In this document: in pieces, positions 40,338 through 64,000 of the stretch | Layout: each line of letters begins with the position of its first letter | How positions within the stretch are numbered: position 1 is the stretch's first letter | Assembly (NCBI GenBank): GCA_024637225.1 | Contig: JAGXFP010000074.1 | Coordinates: 6,704 to 70,703 of the forward strand | Length of the DNA: 64,000 bases | Source of the DNA: Desulfobacterales bacterium | GTDB lineage: Bacteria > Desulfobacterota > Desulfobulbia > Desulfobulbales > JAGXFP01 | Direction: 5' to 3' | Program-made: the position numbers and the translations under genes | The notes under the pieces: generated by a model | The model's database searches: none | The model's input: the letters and a program-made list of their open reading frames with translations, nothing else | What the model was told of the DNA's origin: nothing

Positions 40338-40372
40338 AACCAATATTTTTTATATTTAAAGGGATTATCAGA

Positions 40373-41764
40373 ATGCGCTTAAAAAGGATGTCAACCTTCA
40401 AGAAAACTTTATTAACCGTCATCATCGTCACACCGATGCTGGCCGTGACCATGTGGCCCAACGGCAGCGACGCCGACGCCAAACCACACGACACTTACAA
40501 GAGCCTTGAAATTTTCTCGAACGTCTTGAGCCTCATCCAGAAAAACTATGTCGAAAGCGTCGATGTAACCGAAGTTCTCCAGGGCGCGATCAAGGGGATG
40601 CTCACCTCCCTCGATCCCCATTCCTCCTATATGAAACCTGACGACTTCAGGGAACTCAAACTGGAAACCAAGGGCAGCTTCACCGGCATCGGTATCGAGA
40701 TCACAATCCGGGATTCGGCCCTCACCGTAGTTTCACCGATCGAGGATACTCCCGGCGACCGCGCCGGTCTTAAGGCGGGAGACAAGATCGTCAAGATCGA
40801 GGGCGAGCTTACCAAGGACATGACCCTGATGGAGGCCGTCAAAAAGATGCGCGGCCCCAAGGGAACCACGGTCAATATCTCGGTTTATCGCGATGGGTGG
40901 ACCGATCTGGAGGATTACGCCATCGTCCGGGACGTGATCCCGCTGTTAAGCGTTCGCCACAAGATTCTGGCCCCTGGATACGCCTACATCCGCATAACCA
41001 ACTTCCAGAGCAAGACTTCAAGCGATTTCCAGAAGGCCCTTGAGGAGATCAGCGGACAAGGCAGGATATCCGGTCTGATCCTTGATCTACGCAACAATCC
41101 GGGCGGGCTCCTCTCCCAGTCCGTAAAGGTTTCGGATGTCTTCATCGATGAAGGGGTTATCGTCTCTACCAAGGGACGCATTGAAGACCAGAACACCACC
41201 TATGAAGCGCGGTCGAGCTGGACCAAATACGAATTCCCGATAGTGGTACTGGTCAATGAAGGCAGCGCCAGCGCTTCGGAGATCGTCGCCGGCGCCCTCC
41301 AGGATCACAAAAGGGCACTGGTCGTCGGCACCCAGACCTTCGGCAAAGGCTCGGTTCAGACCATTATTCCGATGAGTAACGGCGCCGGTCTGCGTTTAAC
41401 AACCGCTCGTTATTATACGCCGAGCGGTCGTTCCATCCAGGCCAAGGGTATCGAACCGGACATTCTGGTCGAGAAAATCACCCCGCCCGAAAAAGATGAA
41501 GACAAGAAGTCCCCGTCATTTCTGCGGGAAATTGACCTCAGGCATCATATAGAAAACGGTGACGAGAAGAAGAAAGTCGAAGAAGAAAAGAGTGAGGTCA
41601 ACGACACGGATATAAACAAAACCACCAAGGAAAAGGCGGACGAGGAAGCCAGGGAAATCGAAGAACAACTCTTCCAGGACAACCAGCTGCGAACCGCCCT
41701 GATGTTGCTGAGAGGGTTGAACGTCTACTCCGATTTCAAACCAGCTGCCGCCGAGGCCGAATAA
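40373..41764 (+). CDS. ctpA: S41 carboxyl-terminal processing protease
   Basis: LDPHS, PDZ GIGIEI, DLRNNPGG, SASASE and FGKGSVQ motifs. Confidence 0.93.
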   Translation: MRLKRMSTFKKTLLTVIIVTPMLAVTMWPNGSDADAKPHDTYKSLEIFSNVLSLIQKNYVESVDVTEVLQGAIKGMLTSLDPHSSYMKPDDFRELKLETKGSFTGIGIEITIRDSALTVVSPIEDTPGDRAGLKAGDKIVKIEGELTKDMTLMEAVKKMRGPKGTTVNISVYRDGWTDLEDYAIVRDVIPLLSVRHKILAPGYAYIRITNFQSKTSSDFQKALEEISGQGRISGLILDLRNNPGGLLSQSVKVSDVFIDEGVIVSTKGRIEDQNTTYEARSSWTKYEFPIVVLVNEGSASASEIVAGALQDHKRALVVGTQTFGKGSVQTIIPMSNGAGLRLTTARYYTPSGRSIQAKGIEPDILVEKITPPEKDEDKKSPSFLREIDLRHHIENGDEKKKVEEEKSEVNDTDINKTTKEKADEEAREIEEQLFQDNQLRTALMLLRGLNVYSDFKPAAAEAE

Positions 41765-55884: not shown

Positions 55885-56026
55885 GTTTTTTTAAGGATAG
55901 ATTAAAAATTCAAGGTTCAAGGTTAAGGACAGGTACAAGGGACATAGCAATTCAGTGCTTTTAACCAGTTACAGACTTCTGGATTGCTTTGCTTCACTCG
56001 CAATGACAACTCCTGGTTTATTTTAC

Positions 56027-56083
56027 TTATACCCACAGGTCATGAGTTTCGTACGAGTAGACAAACTGCTCAACCCGGCTTTA
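56027..56083 (-). repeat. Family C repeat (diverged)
   Basis: ttatacccacaggtcatgagtttcgtacgagtagacaaactgctcaacccggcttta. Confidence 0.7.
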
Positions 56084-56219
56084 TTTAAGCTTGCACATAT
56101 TTAGCTTAGGACACAAAGCTTGCAATGTCATTTATATTTAAACTCAATTTTCAGAGTTGCGTTTAATTCGAATCTCATCCTTCAACTTGAATCTTGCCCC
56201 TTGAACCTTGAATCTGCCC

Positions 56220-57794: not shown

Positions 57795-58070
57795 CCTAAA
57801 TCCGTGAGCGTTCGAGAACAGTGCAGATGCAAGGCGGCAACGATGTTGATAATAATGATGGTATATCAACGAGTTGCCAACACCGCAGATGCGCCGTTAT
57901 CGGGCGCCCCGCAGGGCGGCGGGATGAATCGAAATGACTCAGTGAAAAAATTTATTATTTTACGTAACAACAACGAATAAAGACTGAGTTGAGCAGCTTG
58001 TCTGCTCGTACGAAACTTATGCCCTGTGGGTATAAAGCAAAATCCCCAAAGAAGCCGTCACGGATTCAGG
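57795..58070 (+). mobile_element. Family D MITE-like element with a nested family C unit at 57983-58037
   Basis: Matches the reverse complement of 16075-16294 apart from a 55-bp insert. Confidence 0.82.
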
Positions 58071-58152
58071 ATCAAGATCTTATGGCTTGGGGCCGTAAAA
58101 AAATGAAAAAGTACCCGATTTAAGCCGACAATGCACTTGCTATTATTAAGGA

Positions 58153-58380
58153 GAGGTTCAAGGTGGAAAGACAGGTGCAAGGTTCAAGCTGCAAGGTTAA
58201 AGATTAAGGGCAGGTTCAAGTAAAGACAGGTTTAAGGTTCAAGATTAAGGACAGTTACAAGCCTCAAGCCTAAAGCTACAAGTCAACTGCGGTTGTGGCT
58301 TACATATTTAGTAGCTTGCCGCTGTCTTTCATTTAACTTTCCGTTTATAGCTTGCAGCTATAGCTTGAACCTGTCTTTAG
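58153..58380. repeat. Two-armed heptamer array overlapping the galE 3' end
   Basis: aaggttc/aagctgc arm followed by agcttgc agctat agcttga acctgtcttt arm. Confidence 0.75.
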
Positions 58381-59341
58381 CCATCCACGACCAGGCAGTA
58401 CGAATAATCTCCTCCTGGTCGAGATACTCCGGCTGCCAGCCGAGGGTTTTCCGAGCCAGGGTGCTGTCCGCCACCAGGACCGGCGGATCACCCGGGCGGC
58501 GCGGGGCATAGGTGAAGGGAATGGATTTACCCACTACTTTTTCAGCGGCCCGAATAATCTCCAGAATGGAAAAGCCCTTGCCGATCCCGAGGTTGAAGAC
58601 GTGGGCGCCCGGCTTCTTTTCCATATACTCCAGGGCCAGGAGATGGGCCCGGCAGAGATCGTTGACATGGATATAATCCCGGATGCAGGTGCCGTCCGGG
58701 GTGCTGTAATCGTTGCCGAAGACCTGCAGGGCGCACTCCCCTTTTGCCGCTCTGAGCACATTGGGAATTAAATGAGTTTCCGGGTTATGGAGCTCGCCGG
58801 TTTCGCCTTGGGGGTCGGCGCCGGCCGCGTTGAAATAGCGCAGGCTCACCGAATTCAGGCCGTGTTCGGCAGCCCGGCTTTGCAGGATTTCCTCCACCCG
58901 CAGTTTGGTTTCACCATAGGGATTGATCGGCTTGGTGGGATGGGCCTCGTCAATCAGCCCCTTGGCCGGGTTGCCGTATACCGCGGCTGACGAGGAAAAG
59001 ACAAAGCGTTGCAGTCCTGCCTCGCGCATGGCCCGCAGCAGGTTCTCGGTGCCCGTCACATTGTTCTGGAAATAAAGGTCCGGATCACGGATCGATTCGC
59101 CTACCAGGGAACGGGCGGAAAAATGCATGACCCCGTCAAAGCGTTCTCGATCGAACAAGGCCTTCAAATCGGCAGGCCGCAGCAGGTCGCCTTCGACCAG
59201 GCGCCCCCATTTCACCAACTGCCGATGCCCTGTTGAGAGATTATCAAAAACGGTGACTGAATGGCCAAGGCCAACCAGCATCTTCGCCATATGGGAACCG
59301 ATATAGCCGGCCCCGCCGCACACCAGGATATGCAAAGTCAA
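58358..59341 (-). CDS. galE: UDP-glucose 4-epimerase
   Basis: GGAGYIGSH, YGETK, LRYFNAAGA and DGTCIRDYIHV motifs. Confidence 0.93.
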   Translation of the reverse strand: MTLHILVCGGAGYIGSHMAKMLVGLGHSVTVFDNLSTGHRQLVKWGRLVEGDLLRPADLKALFDRERFDGVMHFSARSLVGESIRDPDLYFQNNVTGTENLLRAMREAGLQRFVFSSSAAVYGNPAKGLIDEAHPTKPINPYGETKLRVEEILQSRAAEHGLNSVSLRYFNAAGADPQGETGELHNPETHLIPNVLRAAKGECALQVFGNDYSTPDGTCIRDYIHVNDLCRAHLLALEYMEKKPGAHVFNLGIGKGFSILEIIRAAEKVVGKSIPFTYAPRRPGDPPVLVADSTLARKTLGWQPEYLDQEEIIRTAWSWMAKDRFKL

Positions 59342-59346
59342 GCTCC

Positions 59347-60438
59347 TTATGCCTTGGCCCGGTAGTTGGCATAAACGGCCGAGATTCCGTCCCGCAGACC
59401 GGTCGTCGCCTTCCAGCCCAACTCGTTGATTTTATCCACCGCCAGAAGCTTCCGCATCGTTCCATCGGGTTTGGTTGGATCAAAAGTGAGCTTTCCCCCA
59501 AAACCGACCACATCCTTAACCAGTAAGGCCAACTCCCGGATGGTCAGATCCTCGCCGCAACCGATATTTATAAGCGGTGAGGAGTGAGGCGTAAGGAGTG
59601 AGGAGAATTTGTCGGATGTCAAACCTGCCAGGAAAACCGTGGCATCGGCCATATCGTCGCTGTAGAGAAATTCGCGTCGCGGAGCGCCGGTGCCCCATAG
59701 CACTACTTTGGGTGAGGAGTGAGGGGTGAGGAGTGAGGAGTCTGGGCTGAGACCGATGGCTTCTTTTATATCTAGTGGAATGGTTCCGTTGGTAGCTTCC
59801 TCTATTTGGATCGCTTCTAAATTTTCTTCCATGGCTAATTTGGCGAGGTGAAATTTGCGGATCATCGCAGGCAGGACGTGGGAGTTTTCCAGATCGTAGT
59901 TGTCGCCCGGTCCGTAGAGATTGGTCGGCATCACCGCCAGATATTGGGTGCCGTACTGCCGGTTGTAGGCCCAGCACATCTCGATCCCAGCAATCTTGGC
60001 CACCGCATAGGGCCGGTTGGTCGCTTCCAGCGGCCCGGTCAGGAGATACTCCTCCTTCATGGGCTGGGGGCAGTCGCGGGGATAGATGCAGGAGGAACCC
60101 AGAAACAGCAGGCGTTTGACCCCTGACCGATAAGCTTCATGGATAAGGTTGGTCTGAATGGCCAGGTTCTGGTGGATAAATTCGGCCGGATAGGTGTTAT
60201 TGGCCACGATGCCGCCGACTTTGGCGGCGGCCAGGAAGACATATTCCGGACGCTGCCCGGAGAAAAACTCCCGAACCGCCGCCTGATCGGTCAGATCCAG
60301 CTCCGCATGGCTCCGGGTAATGATCCCCGTATAACCCTTTGCCAGGAGGTTGCGCATCAAGGCGCTGCCCACCAGGCCACGGTGGCCGGCGATGTAAATG
60401 CGGGAGTGAGGAGTGAGGGGTGAGGGGTCAGGAGTCAT
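59347..60438 (-). CDS. fcl: GDP-L-fucose synthase
   Basis: [26 protein letters not shown] and [11 protein letters not shown] motifs. Confidence 0.95.
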
Positions 60439-60815
60439 TTTTTGTCTATCTCTTTTCTCAAGGAATTTATCAGGCCGGCAAGAAGTCTAAAAACTTTATC
60501 CACTTTATCAAGAAGGATTTTTTTCACGGAAAGATAACCCAAATTATCACTTATTAATATTTGTGTTTCCAATTCGCTTAAAGACCCACGAGCAATCGAG
60601 AGAAATTGCAGGAATTCCTTTTGGCCGGTGCGCCCTGCCCCTTCAGCAATATTACTGGGAATAGAGACGGCGGCGCGGCGCATCTGGCTTGTTAAGGCAT
60701 ATAATTCTTCTTGCGGAAAACGTGCCGTAACCTGATAAATCTCTTGAACCAGCAACATAGCCTCCTTCCAGACAAGCAAATTATGATGTTTTCTCTTCAC
60801 CCATCCCTCACTCAT
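60435..60815 (-). CDS. Four-helix-bundle protein (23S rRNA IVP / Avd-like family)
   Basis: [30 protein letters not shown] and [12 protein letters not shown] motifs. Confidence 0.92.
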
Positions 60816-60891
60816 TTACCCTCACCTATCGCAAGTCAAAAGCCTCACTCCTAACCCCTCACTAATCTTTTCCTAATCCCTCACCGCCCTT

Positions 60892-61977
60892 CTATTCATG
60901 ATGATTAAAAACAGCATAACCCTTGCGCTTGACCAGTTCGTCGCGTTCGGCGGCTTTCAGGTCTTCCCGAACCATCTCCGCTACCAGTTCCGGAAAGGTT
61001 ATTTTGGTTGTCCAGCCCAGTTTTTCCCTGGCCTTGCTGGGGTCGCCGAGGAGTGTATCGACCTCGGTGGGCCGAAAATAACGGGGGTCGACCTGGACGA
61101 TGCAGTTGCCCTTGGCGTCATAACCCTTCTCATCAAGCCCTTTGCCTTTCCAGGTAATGGAGAGACCGATTTCATCCGCGGCGGCGTCGACAAAGTCACG
61201 GACGCTGTAATGCTCACCACTGGCGATGACAAAATCATCGGGCTCGTCCTGCTGGAGCATCAGCCACTGCATCTCGACGTAATCCCTGGCATGGCCCCAA
61301 TCGCGTTTCGCATCGAGGTTTCCGAGATAGAGACAATCCTGGAGGCCAAGTTTGATTCTGGACAGGGCCCTGGTAATCTTTCTGGTAACGAAGGTTTCGC
61401 CCCGGACCGGCGACTCATGATTGAAAAGGATGCCGTTGCAGGCATAAATCCCGTAAGCCTCACGATAGTTCACCGTAATCCAGTAGGCATAAATTTTGGC
61501 GACGGCGTAGGGAGAACGCGGATAGAACGGGGTGGTTTCAGTTTGCGGGGTTTCCTGGACCTTGCCGTAAAGTTCCGAGGTCGAGGCCTGATAGAATCTG
61601 GTTTTCTTTTCGAGCCCCAGGATCTTGATGGCCTCAAGCAGGCGCAGAGTGCCCAGGGCATCCGAATTGGCGGTGTACTCCGGCTCTTCAAAGGAAACCG
61701 CTACATGGCTCTGGGCCGCCAGATTGTAAAGTTCGTCGGGTTGAATCGCCTGAATAACCCGGACCAGACTGCTCGAATCGGTCATATCGCCGTAATGCAG
61801 AATAAACTCACGCCCCTTCTCATGGGGATCCTGATAAAGATGGTCTATCCGCTCGGTATTAAAAGATGAGGATCGCCGTTTAAGACCGTGGACTTCATAA
61901 CCCTTTGCCAAGAGGAACTCGGCCAGATATGATCCATCCTGGCCGGTAACCCCGGTAATTAACGCCTTCTTTTTCAT
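60892..61977 (-). CDS. gmd: GDP-mannose 4,6-dehydratase
   Basis: [28 protein letters not shown] and FVTRKI motifs. Confidence 0.96.
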
Positions 61978-62137
61978 TCCTGAATTTCTCCCTCTAGATA
62001 CTTTCTTAAATTATAAACTCAACTTTCTGACTTGATTAATAGCTTTATTTTACCTTGTTTATCGATGCCGAAGCCATGTGTAATACTACGCATCGGCAAA
62101 TAAGGAGCGAGGAATGCCGTAAACAATCCGGGGCAAG

Positions 62138-62282
62138 CTTGATGGCGTCGCAAAAAGGCATAAATTCAGTCATTGCGAGCGCAGCGAAGCAATCGATAAA
62201 CATTTACTAGTTGAAGTACTGGATTGCTTGTCGCTTCGCTCCTCGCAATGACGCGGCAGATCAGTATTGCGAATTCATCAAG
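62138..62282. mobile_element. MITE-like element with family B ends carrying a gtcattgcgag palindrome
   Basis: TIR cttgatggcgtcgcaa / ttgcgaattcatcaag. Confidence 0.75.
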
Positions 62283-62362
62283 TTTATCGGTAACCAATCA
62301 CGAGATAAGCCACCGGGATTGGCCTTGACCATATCCCATCCGGTACCCGTGATCGCTTACTT

Positions 62363-63289
62363 TTATTGTGGCAGATCCTCAGTCTCCAGCCGAAACGGTC
62401 TGGGTGAAAAACCGAGATCGGCTGCCGCCTCGGCATGGGTGAAAACCATATCACGGTTCATCCGCTCCGCCATTTCCGCCGACCAGTGGCGGTATCTCGG
62501 CAACAGCCGCAGGCAGCCCACCGACACGCGGAAAGCCGCCAGGGGGATCATCACCGATCGTCGCCGGCGATGCAGGGCGGCAAAGACACGATCCACCATA
62601 TCCCGGTAAGGCAGGATTTCGCCACCGGAAATGTTATAGGACCGGTTTGCCGCTATAGGATTTCTCAGGGCTGAAACACAGGCGGCAGCGACATCTTCGA
62701 CGTGGATCGGCTGACGCAGTCCTCCGGCTTTGCCGAAGAAAGGGAAAAATCGAAAGCGGCGAATAAAGCGGGCAATCTCACTGACATTCCTGTCGCGGCC
62801 CAAACCGTAAATCAAGGTGGGCCGGAGGATCACCCACTCAACCCCTTTACTTTCTGCCCATGCCTTCAAACGCTCTTCGCCTTCGGCCAGACTTGCGGCA
62901 TCAGCCTTTTCAGCCGGGTCCGATGAGGCGGTCTTGGTGAAGCGGCTGGTTGATGAAAGGGCTACGACTCGACGGACCCCGGCGGCTTCGAGCATCGGAA
63001 AATAATAGGGCAAGACCCGAATTGGGACCAAGCACAGCCATTCCTCAATGGCAGACACTTCTGAAGAGTCGCGCCCGAGTACGGCAAGCCGCCTCCAGCT
63101 CACTCCAGCCTCTGCTTTGGCGACCGGAGCTTTTCTGGAAAAGGCAAACACGTGCCGACCTTGATTAAGCAAAAGCGGGATCAGGCTTTCACCGACCATG
63201 CTTGCCGCGCCGAGCACACCGGCAGCCGTCCCCGCATTCCCATTTTTGCATCCCCAGGGCACCCAAAGGGCATTTGCTTCGCGGCACAT
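62363..63289 (-). CDS. NAD-dependent epimerase/dehydratase family protein
   Basis: GVLGAASMVG, LSSTSRF, LRPTLIYG and RQPIHVED motifs; true start unclear because the upstream part is repeat-derived. Confidence 0.75.
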   Translation of the reverse strand: MCREANALWVPWGCKNGNAGTAAGVLGAASMVGESLIPLLLNQGRHVFAFSRKAPVAKAEAGVSWRRLAVLGRDSSEVSAIEEWLCLVPIRVLPYYFPMLEAAGVRRVVALSSTSRFTKTASSDPAEKADAASLAEGEERLKAWAESKGVEWVILRPTLIYGLGRDRNVSEIARFIRRFRFFPFFGKAGGLRQPIHVEDVAAACVSALRNPIAANRSYNISGGEILPYRDMVDRVFAALHRRRRSVMIPLAAFRVSVGCLRLLPRYRHWSAEMAERMNRDMVFTHAEAAADLGFSPRPFRLETEDLPQ

Positions 63290-63383
63290 AAGTTTCGTTT
63301 GAGCAGACAAGCTGCTCAACTCAGCTTTATACCCATAGGGCATAAGTTTCGTTTGAGTAGACAAGCTGCTCAACTCAGCTTTA
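63287..63383 (-). repeat. Tandem family C units, 54-bp period
   Basis: cataagtttcgtttgag at 63287 and 63341. Confidence 0.85.
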
Positions 63384-63458
63384 ACTTTTTGCGATTTTGT
63401 CAATCTTGAACCTTTTAGCTGCCCAAACTTGCAGCTTTTAGCTTGAAGCTTTTAGCTT

Positions 63459-64000
63459 TCATTCCTCGAGATTCGCGCGCCTTGGATCTGACGAATTTTG
63501 CTTAGCTATCCCATTTTTGAGTTGTTGCGAATTCATCGTATAATGCCCAACTATCAATGATGACGATTTGGCGACTGCTACCAAACCGAAACGGAGCCAG
63601 ACTCCTAAAGCAACCAGACCCATCAGAACTCCGGGATATTGATGCCGGAAAAACTTGCGATAAAAACGCATCATGCCCTTGTGTTTGTGCCACTCGACAA
63701 AAAACGGCCGGGCATGGCTGCAATGGCACTGGTGGTGAAGCACCGGCGCGTCGGGAACGAAAAGGATCTTCCAGCCTCGCTGCCTGAAGCGCATGCACCA
63801 ATCCAGATCTTCACAGTGCAGGAAATATGCCTCGTCCCAGATACCGACATCATCGATCGCCGCCTTCCTCACCAGCATCAGCGCCCCGGAAACAGCTTCA
63901 ACTTCAATGGGAGAATCGGGCAGCGGTTGGGTGTGGAGATGAAAATCGAAAAAGAGCTTTGGCCACCTTTCGGACCAGCGGGACAAACCGAAGGCCCGCA
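63459..64000 (-). CDS. Glycosyltransferase family 2 (WbbL-like), 5' end outside the window
   Basis: VSGALML, DEAYFLHCEDLDWC and HKHKGM motifs. Confidence 0.85.
   Translation of the reverse strand, partial: RAFGLSRWSERWPKLFFDFHLHTQPLPDSPIEVEAVSGALMLVRKAAIDDVGIWDEAYFLHCEDLDWCMRFRQRGWKILFVPDAPVLHHQCHCSHARPFFVEWHKHKGMMRFYRKFFRHQYPGVLMGLVALGVWLRFGLVAVAKSSSLIVGHYTMNSQQLKNGIAKQNSSDPRRANLEE

Follow-up and report, generated by a model that had tools for sequence, protein, structure and literature searches.

Between the GDP-mannose 4,6-dehydratase gene gmd and the GDP-fucose synthase gene fcl, the 64-kb stretch of Desulfobacterales DNA analysed here (the window) carries a small gene of the PF05635 family, which includes proteins encoded by open reading frames (ORFs) in intervening sequences (IVSs) of 23S rRNA. 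The gene is bracketed by inverted arrays of a heptanucleotide, GTGAGGR. With moderate confidence we read gene and arrays as an IVS-type cassette, in which the gene's own heptamer, in inverted arrays, makes up both arms of a long hairpin and the PF05635 gene lies in the loop. The evidence comes from the layout of the locus, from the gmd-fcl junction in related genomes, from the flanks of other PF05635 genes in this genome and in many phyla, and from gene-less arrays of the same units dispersed through genomes.

A PF05635 gene in inverted heptamer arms

The protein matches the PF05635 profile with 127.1 bits (cut-off 33.8), TIGR02436 with 124.2 bits (cut-off 24) and NF008911 with 144 bits (cut-off 137). 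Among proteins of known structure it comes nearest to XCC0516 of Xanthomonas campestris (PDB 2gsc, five chains; E = 8.6e-31 for residues 7-121), which is described as a toroidal homopentamer (PMC4990558). Both its size, within the ~110-130 aa of PF05635 four-helix bundles, and its similarity to a solved pentamer place it in this family. A sequence-only reading of the window had assigned the gene to the family of the 23S rRNA IVS proteins and had noted a fold shared with Avd, the accessory protein of diversity-generating retroelements (DGRs). The family assignment is borne out by the profile scores, and the likeness to Avd appears as weak matches below cut-off, with 21.6 bits to NF033474 (cut-off 80) and 24.5 bits to PF22296 (cut-off 40).

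All three genes lie on the minus strand (Table 1). No more than a few bases lie between the gmd stop codon and the 5' arm of the cassette, GAGG stands just upstream of the ATG of the four-helix-bundle gene, and the stop codon of that gene overlaps the fcl start (ATGA). No alternative in-frame start codon for fcl is present ahead of its Rossmann motif. The 5' arm holds six GTGAGGR and three TTAGGA-type units and takes in the 76 nt that separate the gmd stop from the four-helix-bundle gene, together with that gene's first seven codons (MSEGWVK). It is degenerate, forms no clean tandem array and is not called by Tandem Repeats Finder (TRF) at score 30. The 3' arm is called, as a period-7 array of 4.7 copies at 60403-60435, and reads TGACTCC, TGACCCC, TCACCCC, TCACTCC and TCACTCC on the coding strand. 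It encodes the first 12 residues of Fcl, supplying the fcl start codon and the next 11 codons. Both arms had been described in the sequence-only reading, the upstream one as heptamers filling the gap and the first codons, the downstream one as five complementary units that also encode the Fcl N-terminus. Both descriptions are accurate, with the refinement that the upstream heptamers stand in blocks with spacers between them. With at most one mismatch allowed, a heptamer-dimer pattern was found 10 times in the window, where 0.09 occurrences are expected; 0 of 100 shuffles give as many, and nine of the 10 occurrences fall within 59577-60862. Period 7 also accounts for 17 of the 34 TRF rows in the window.

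Table 1. Features of the gmd-fcl region in the window.
Feature	Position	Strand	Basis and remarks
gmd (GDP-mannose 4,6-dehydratase)	60892..61977	-	PF16363, 529.3 bits; junction comparison in relatives
5' arm	60795..60891	-	heptamer blocks read from sequence; pattern match 60849-60862; paired with 3' arm in folds
four-helix-bundle gene, 126 aa (23S rRNA IVS protein / S23p family)	60435..60815	-	PF05635, TIGR02436, NF008911, PDB 2gsc
3' arm, five complementary heptamers (TGACTCC/TCACCCC type)	60403..60436	-	TRF; also fcl codons 2-12
fcl (GDP-fucose synthase, 363 aa)	59347..60438	-	ORF and profile; alignment with 10 relatives
internal fcl array 1, GTGAGGR	59712..59741	-	TRF, 4.3 copies; hypervariable loop
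internal fcl array 2, GTGAGGR	59577..59605	-	TRF, 4.1 copies; just before conserved LINIGCG

Gene and arrays come and go together at the gmd-fcl junction

Loci carrying fcl were collected from 40 relatives of this genome (G000; 3.28 Mb, 74 contigs), and gmd adjoins fcl in 27 cases; three fcl loci were dropped, L115 because it lies at a contig end and L123 and L142 because they gave no gmd match. A PF05635 gene or its remnant is found in seven of the junctions, intact in G000, G003, G008, G015 and G017 and broken in G002 and in G020, where it contains six stop codons. All seven of these junctions have period-7 runs, with scores of 15-23, against scores of at most 6 in all 20 junctions without the gene, whose lengths range from -4 to 218 nt. 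The arrays therefore come and go with the gene. This agrees with the proposal of the sequence-only reading that gene and inverted arrays form one unit inserted between two usually adjacent genes; a gene-less junction that nonetheless holds arrays, which would have spoken for the opposite, is found in 0 of 20 cases. We consider it very probable that gene and arms were acquired as one unit.

The same-genus genome G001 has a clean 27-nt gmd-fcl junction and a different Fcl N-terminus, from which it follows that the cassette replaced the original fcl start. As judged from these sequence comparisons, the cassette is shown as a single block that entered directly after the gmd stop, with fcl now starting inside the 3' arm. 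No target-site duplication is visible at the junction when it is set against the clean ones. The heptamer is GTGAGGR in G000, G003, G008 and G020, CAAGRTT in G015 and AAGGCTA in G017. The cassette proteins at these junctions are 37-57% identical to that of the window, against 71-78% for the flanking gmd genes. The gmd-fcl junction thus looks like an insertion hotspot that has received three cassette types.

A different state is seen in G002 (L114, G002:C437:4614-8207), where only residues 80-126 are left of the gene and expanded GTGAGGR and CTTGAAG/CTTGTGA arrays stand in place of its 5' part. To judge from its sequence, this locus seems to capture a cassette in the course of decay to a gene-less hairpin.

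The same packaging around other PF05635 genes

G000 carries three PF05635 genes, and inverted heptamer arrays flank every one of them, with a different unit in each case. Beside GTGAGGR at the window locus, these are AGCCAGG at L002, which lies between two membrane-subunit genes and has about nine complementary copies downstream, and AGTTATA/AGTTGGA at L003, whose neighbours are a ligase gene and an aminotransferase gene. An inverted-flank score, obtained by comparing the 200-nt upstream flank with the reverse complement of the downstream flank, was computed for 2793 crude G000 genes and has a median of 16 and a 99th percentile of 27. The three PF05635 genes score 51, 32 and 27 and rank 8, 13 and 29. 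The other top-ranked genes have unrelated flanks without heptamers, among them repetitive extragenic palindromic (REP)-like repeats, genes like those for REP-associated tyrosine transposases (RAYTs) and a GIY-YIG gene. Period-7 runs of at least 10 in both flanks are found at only six of the 2793 genes.

Several of these non-heptamer loci may be recorded here. The top score of the genome (122) belongs to a gene of 464 aa at window 40372-41764 (G000:C30:47075-48467), which has 82-nt inverted REP-like flanks; the repeat also flanks an rplM-like gene (C60:24014-24443) and is present in the gmd-fcl junction of a relative (L126). At window 62120-62250, downstream of gmd, lies an inverted repeat of the 'cattgcgag...gcaatc' type, and similar arms flank C44:25035-26103. 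The GIY-YIG-like gene, of 100 aa (G000:C43:36796-37096), sits in a perfect-looking 33-nt inverted repeat without heptamer structure.

The 40 relatives gave 29 further PF05635 loci. A wider set was built from one genome per species with a five-protein alignment as query, and the best 80 of 592 matches were taken. These loci span Proteobacteria, Acidobacteriota, Bacteroidota, Planctomycetota, Verrucomicrobiota, Chloroflexota, Clostridia, Actinomycetota, Nitrospirota and Patescibacteria, among others; as the best matches to an alignment of one subfamily, they represent that one PF05635 subfamily. With at least 100 nt required on both sides, 106 loci were usable, 29 from the relatives and 77 from the many phyla. 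Their median inverted-flank score is 32, against 16 in 522 permuted pairs and 16 in direct orientation, and scores above the permuted pairs' 99th percentile are reached by 49 of the 106 loci in inverted and by 12 in direct orientation. In flanks with a tandem run of at least 10, period 7 scores best upstream in 36 of 47 and downstream in 55 of 65; period 8 does so in eight upstream and nine downstream flanks, mostly in Bacteroidota. Period-7 runs stand in both flanks at 31 of the 106 loci, against the six of 2793 control genes, and in at least one flank at 63. Inverted period-7 flanks are thus enriched around family members relative to control genes, as the idea of a packaged unit had led the sequence-only reading to expect. 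The cassette gene is co-directional with both neighbours at 60 of the 91 loci where both are clear.

Gene-less arrays and genome-specific units

The arrays are by no means confined to PF05635 loci. TRF finds 228 period-7 arrays in G000, the genome has 35 GTGAGGR-type arrays of at least two units, and three of the four commonest unit families of the genome are those that flank its cassettes. Twenty-two inverted pairs of period-7 arrays lie within 2 kb of each other, 16 of them with spacers of at most 160 nt. These pairs form gene-less hairpins, several of them nested.

At least seven hairpins with AGAAGCC/AGCCAGG arms share a loop motif of about 21 nt (C1:73957-74037, C16:69490-69567, C42:10447-10545, C43:58809-58901, C44:59009-59194, C51:14262-14387 and C4:117469-117693). 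From their sequences they look like non-autonomous copies of an L002-type cassette; alignments of their loops to the L002 cassette leader are dominated by the arrays themselves. Within the window, a gene-less hairpin at 55909-56212 has TTCAAGG units on its left, CTTGAAC units on its right and a 258-nt loop that holds REP-like repeats present elsewhere in the genome. Another dispersed repeat is written into the ORF at 62363-63403, in whose N-terminal part (63290-63403) a segment of some 17 aa (KAELSSLS.QTKLM) occurs twice. Positions 57989-58123 code for a peptide like it, and period-7 and period-14 arrays lie at 63428-63459.

The abundance of a unit is specific to the genome. When a 14-mer of each cassette's unit was counted in five related genomes, AAGGCTA gave 10 matches in G017 against 0-3 in the others, AGCTGAA gave 148 in G036, 37 in G017 and 1-2 elsewhere, and AGGCAGA gave 98 in G020 against 1-5 elsewhere. 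In G032, 40 matches to the AGGCAGA pattern read backwards (AGACGGA units) point to a further genome-specific heptamer family. A more general pattern, four GTGs at period 7, has at least five matches in 18 of 29 genomes with PF05635 (median 11) and in one of 12 without (median 0), for which a one-sided Mann-Whitney test gives p = 5e-4, an overstated value as the genomes are kin. Samples of 100 kb from eight genomes hold 1-3 period-7 arrays per 100 kb both with and without the gene, the G036 contigs being a biased sample chosen from pattern matches. A 20-mer search for GTGAGGR arrays, with at most one mismatch, gave 9-90 matches in eight genomes against 0-1 in the remaining 33. A GTGAGGR-flanked gene of the window's type is present in six of these eight, in two of them in broken form. 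For the GTG and the GTGAGGR counts, a control with the pattern reversed amounts to the same repeat in another register and is uninformative.

The unit co-varies with the protein, and the arms have a fixed polarity

Across the loci, the heptamer changes with the protein that it flanks. The mean cyclic distance between units falls from 3.4 for protein pairs below 40% identity to 1.36 at 60-70% and 0.62 above 70%, and at 60-70% identity 62% of the pairs differ by at most one base in the unit. The correlation of unit distance with protein identity (Spearman rho -0.32) is reached in 0 of 500 label permutations. Units are also shared across phyla, as in the AGTGGGY of two proteins from Chloroflexota and Terriglobia that are 71% identical. 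The window protein and its counterparts in a gammaproteobacterial metagenome-assembled genome and an uncultured Geobacter are likewise 64-66% identical, and all have GTGAGGG. Judged from sequence, such co-variation would fit a cassette that moves as a block as well as a protein that reads its own repeat, and does not separate the two.

Every locus has a unit of its own, but the choice of unit is not random, and the arms are strictly oriented. Among 73 period-7 units of the upstream arm, read on the sense strand, 36 contain AGT and 40 contain GTG, where about 8 of 73 are expected for each trinucleotide; the complement ACT occurs in none and CAC in two. The G/T-rich arm is always the 5' arm at PF05635 loci, and 17 of 18 gene-less G000 hairpins inspected have the same polarity. 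The sole inverted heptamer pair of reversed polarity (G000:C61:41140-41569, with a CTTGAAT arm first) encloses a small ORF with CxxC pairs, beginning MPIYEYKC.

Heptamer arrays written into fcl

The heptamer arrays at this locus do more than bracket the four-helix-bundle gene. Two further arrays lie inside fcl (Table 1), with the unit and orientation of the 3' arm, and each encodes a stretch of ten residues. Since three or more tandem GTGAGGA units hold a TGA in every frame, only this orientation can be coding. In an alignment of 11 Fcl proteins, that of the window and 10 from relatives, the N-terminal array is common to G000, G002, G003 and G008, and internal array 2 to G000, G002 and G003. 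Internal array 1 is found in G000 and G002 only, and the Fcl of G003 has unrelated residues of similar length in that loop. At the site of the second internal array, cassette-free relatives have a similar native motif (LSLLTNH in G001). From the pattern of the three arrays across the aligned proteins, the array family of the adjacent cassette has been written into neighbouring coding sequence, at least once recently.

Predicted folding of the transcript

That the two arms could pair and loop out the gene, as the sequence-only reading had suggested, is also what folding predicts. For the 501 nt that reach from the gmd stop to within fcl, both the minimum free energy (MFE) and the centroid structure join the two arms and enclose the whole ORF (-153.3 kcal/mol, z = -1.94; two of 100 shuffles fold as well). 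The arms of the second copy, L002, are likewise predicted to pair in both structures (z = -2.23). A metatranscriptome from the same study contained next to none of the sampled sequence words from the stretch.

How the cassette may work, and what else it could be

On the cassette reading, the PF05635 protein would be a ring-forming four-helix bundle, and in the transcript of gmd, the four-helix-bundle gene and fcl the arms would pair into an imperfect stem of about 35-40 bp that encloses the whole ORF and covers the first 11 fcl codons. By analogy with the 23S IVS of Coxiella, where RNase III cuts in a heptamer stem, this stem may be a point of control or processing at the RNA level. A cut in the stem would remove the fcl start, so that another course seems more likely at this locus: ribosomes that have translated the cassette gene would open the stem and reinitiate at the ATGA, and fcl translation would then depend on them. 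The protein, in turn, would recognise arrays of its heptamer, in the arms of the cassette as well as in some 30 gene-less arrays with this unit that are dispersed over the genome. The suggestion of the sequence-only reading that the protein may bind, process or spread the repeats is backed indirectly by the co-variation of unit with protein and by the co-occurrence of arrays and gene at the genome level. We would not grade these steps alike. An RNA stem as the working form, suggested by the predicted folds and by the Coxiella analogy, is a tentative proposal that comes close to being evenly balanced, and that the protein binds its own repeats is possible, with our judgement leaning towards doubt.

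A number of observations weigh against the cassette reading or its parts. The window's 5' arm has interruptions and is imperfect, and the z-scores of the two folds are modest. Between the cassettes of G000 and G003 the 5' arm differs and the 3' arm is identical, which gives no covariation support for the stem. The Coxiella analogy is not transferable unchanged, as a cut by RNase III in the stem would deprive the fcl message of its start. Nor does a plain double-stranded stem account for the arms' strict polarity. Among the 106 loci, 57 do not exceed the 99th percentile of the permuted pairs and 34 have no period-7 or period-8 run of at least 10 in either flank, so that array packaging is common in PF05635 and not universal; the 80 wide loci were the best of 592 matches to an alignment of one subfamily and so cover only part of the family. 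Plain co-inheritance within a cassette would produce the co-variation of unit and protein just as well, and genome-level tests overstate their result, since related genomes are not independent. Finally, G035 (37 matches) and G037 (nine matches, no PF05635 match) have GTGAGGR arrays and no detectable cognate gene. To judge from the sequences, arrays can outlast the gene in these genomes, or the gene may be unassembled, cassette loci often lying at contig ends.

A bolder version of the cassette reading would make PF05635 rings sequence-specific readers of their own heptamer, the two forming a self-propagating system without a recognisable transposase or reverse transcriptase. One protomer would read each 7-nt unit, and a pentamer would cover a typical array of four to five units. 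Such a system could seed and maintain the short tandemly repeated repetitive (STRR) sequences of cyanobacteria, the GGGAATC repeats, the paired sites of Geobacter metallireducens and the in-frame arrays of Fcl. The fixed polarity, with the G/T-rich strand running 5' to 3' towards the gene and an AGT/GTG core, might then be the footprint of arrays being made or read on a single strand. Taken as a whole, we regard this version as rather unlikely.

One explanation of another kind is a mobile cassette at the DNA level, in which the arms are insertion or excision ends, perhaps as DNA hairpins, the protein is a factor for mobility or copying, the gene-less hairpins are non-autonomous copies comparable to MITEs (miniature transposable elements with inverted repeats) and the RNA stem is a by-product. 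It would explain why different cassette types occupy one gmd-fcl junction, with proteins far less alike than the neighbouring gmd genes, and why cassette-free junctions are clean. The many closely spaced inverted pairs, the loop motif shared by the AGAAGCC hairpins and the genome-specific abundance of units also speak for it, as does the idea of Ralph and McClelland (1993), quoted in PMC4990558, that the ORF of the IVS serves mobility. Against this, the protein has no recognisable nuclease, recombinase or polymerase fold, no reverse transcriptase stands beside any of the three G000 copies, target-site duplications were not seen at the junction, and arm lengths and units vary as in slippage, unlike the fixed ends of transposons. 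We consider this explanation unlikely on balance. A transposon with a transposase was rejected, as the sole ORF is a four-helix bundle, the arms are variable arrays and no target-site duplication was seen.

A trans-acting regulator is a quite improbable alternative, in which the protein is a global DNA- or RNA-binding regulator, the dispersed arrays are its operators and its own arms serve autoregulation. Unidentified global regulators were proposed for the paired inverted sites of G. metallireducens, for which PMC2700814 names IHF/HU and not the PF05635 family. The arrays lie mostly between genes of one operon, in keeping with the co-directional neighbours at PF05635 loci, and their units are genome-specific and match the resident cassette. 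Against it, the genes beside the arrays have no theme in common, arrays are found inside coding sequences such as fcl as well, their copy number is highly variable, and G035 and G037 keep arrays without a detectable gene. One might also suppose mere coincidence, a slippage-prone, heptamer-rich genome in which the gene happens to lie between two arrays, and the abundance of period-7 arrays in G000 and in the window would suit this. The genome-wide flank, permuted-pair and junction controls all contradict it: the three family genes rank near the top of all genes scored, period-7 runs in both flanks are rare, the pattern recurs in many phyla with arms that match within and not between loci, and arrays are absent from all 20 gene-less junctions. 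Coincidence was rejected as very improbable. Least probable of all, and likewise rejected, is that the gene is the Avd of a DGR. It shares the fold superfamily and the weak profile matches given above. An Avd role is made unlikely by the position of these matches below their cut-offs and by the four reverse-transcriptase (PF00078) matches of G000, which lie on other contigs (C5, C45, C65 and C14), none being found on the contigs C30, C44 and C6 that carry the three PF05635 genes; no template/variable repeat pair was seen near the gene.

What the cassette would mean

Ever since its ORF was first seen in an rRNA IVS in 1993, PF05635, a very large protein family, has been without an assigned function. 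If the cassette reading holds, this family and the unexplained excess of heptanucleotide repeats in bacteria become candidate partners of each other. For annotation, the locus offers an enzyme whose start codon and N-terminus come from an array and two of whose loops contain array-encoded residues. For operon expression, it offers a cassette between co-transcribed genes with a predicted stem over the downstream start. The gmd-fcl junction, with three cassette types among relatives, is a natural system for studying the gain and replacement of cassettes.

Relation to known systems

The closest described systems are the ORF-bearing IVSs of 23S rRNA. In the IVS of Coxiella burnetii, which lies in helix 45 (Warrier et al. 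2016; PMC4990558), the S23p ORF stands in the loop of a 28-bp stem, three tandem GACAGAT heptamers, whose number varies between strains, precede it, and RNase III cuts the IVS at the first repeat in vitro. Like the IVSs of Coxiella and Leptospira, the window cassette has an ORF of this family in the loop of a stem of inverted repeats inside a longer host transcript and, as in Coxiella, tandem heptamers in the arm beside the ORF. Cleavage by RNase III has been shown for the Coxiella IVS only. Unlike the 23S IVSs, the window cassette has as its host a protein-coding operon, gmd-fcl, rather than an rRNA helix (25, 45 or 9), its 3' arm doubles as the fcl start and first 11 codons, and its unit, GTGAGGR, recurs inside fcl and in about 30 other places of the genome. 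A search for an rRNA copy of the cassette found no 23S gene in the G000 assembly, Rfam gave no match in 58000-63000 at E up to 1, and none of 112 PF05635 loci had both flanks free of a long ORF, so that the set holds no rRNA example.

The window protein belongs to the same four-helix-bundle superfamily as Avd (bAvd). Avd is a pentameric four-helix bundle that binds nucleic acid as the partner of the reverse transcriptase in DGRs. Unlike Avd, the window gene has no reverse transcriptase or template/variable repeats nearby, and the Avd models stay below their cut-offs. With MITEs and REP-RAYT systems the cassette shares a gene-bearing hairpin accompanied by many gene-less hairpins of the same arm sequence, and repeats that are specific to a genome. 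It differs from them in lacking a transposase-like fold, in arms made of variable tandem arrays and in that no target-site duplication was seen; the true RAYT-like genes of G000 have different flanks, without heptamers.

Dispersed heptanucleotide repeats are the other side of the comparison, and the STRR sequences of cyanobacteria are one such family. Heptamer repeats have been described in Xanthomonas and Nostoc, with 70-75 convergent pairs of the Xanthomonas GGGAATC repeat (Rehm et al. 2015; PMC4692102), and in Beggiatoaceae as TAACTGA repeats (MacGregor 2015; PMC4679880). G. metallireducens was reported to have inverted pairs of tandem sites with hepta- or octanucleotide units, in sets of 24, 21 and 8 pairs, 53 in total (Aklujkar et al. 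2009; PMC2700814). These papers propose G-quadruplexes, translational control or IHF/HU sites. The arrays of G000 share with the repeats described there tandem 7-nt units, about four to an array, a mostly intergenic position between co-directional genes and frequent convergent pairs, and on these grounds its 228 period-7 arrays, with 22 inverted pairs within 2 kb, and its 35 GTGAGGR-type arrays belong with the dispersed heptanucleotide families, which have arrays of about 2-6 units.

The two bodies of work do not seem to have been joined. The available texts of PMC4692102, PMC4679880 and PMC2700814 never mention 23S, S23 or helix bundle; supplementary tables, which lie outside this search, might list such genes. 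The family names lead to work on DGRs, to the Coxiella IVS paper and to gene lists. In the literature searched on these names and on heptamer repeats the two are never brought together, and no published text was accordingly found that connects PF05635 genes with heptamer arrays other than in rRNA, the search taking in neither supplementary tables nor subscription journals. The sequence-only reading had called the element undescribed. For its layout this does not stand, since an ORF-bearing 23S IVS of this design is described in PMC4990558; for a cassette in mRNA operons, tied to dispersed heptamers, it does, none having been found in print. The Xanthomonadales cassettes of our locus set (L062, L082 and L098) use GGGAAT-like units, as do the GGGAATC repeats of Xanthomonas. 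Set beside these systems, the element in the window is an ORF-bearing IVS variant in an mRNA operon, tied to a genome-wide heptamer family, and what is special to this locus is the insertion hotspot, the captured fcl start and the arrays inside fcl.

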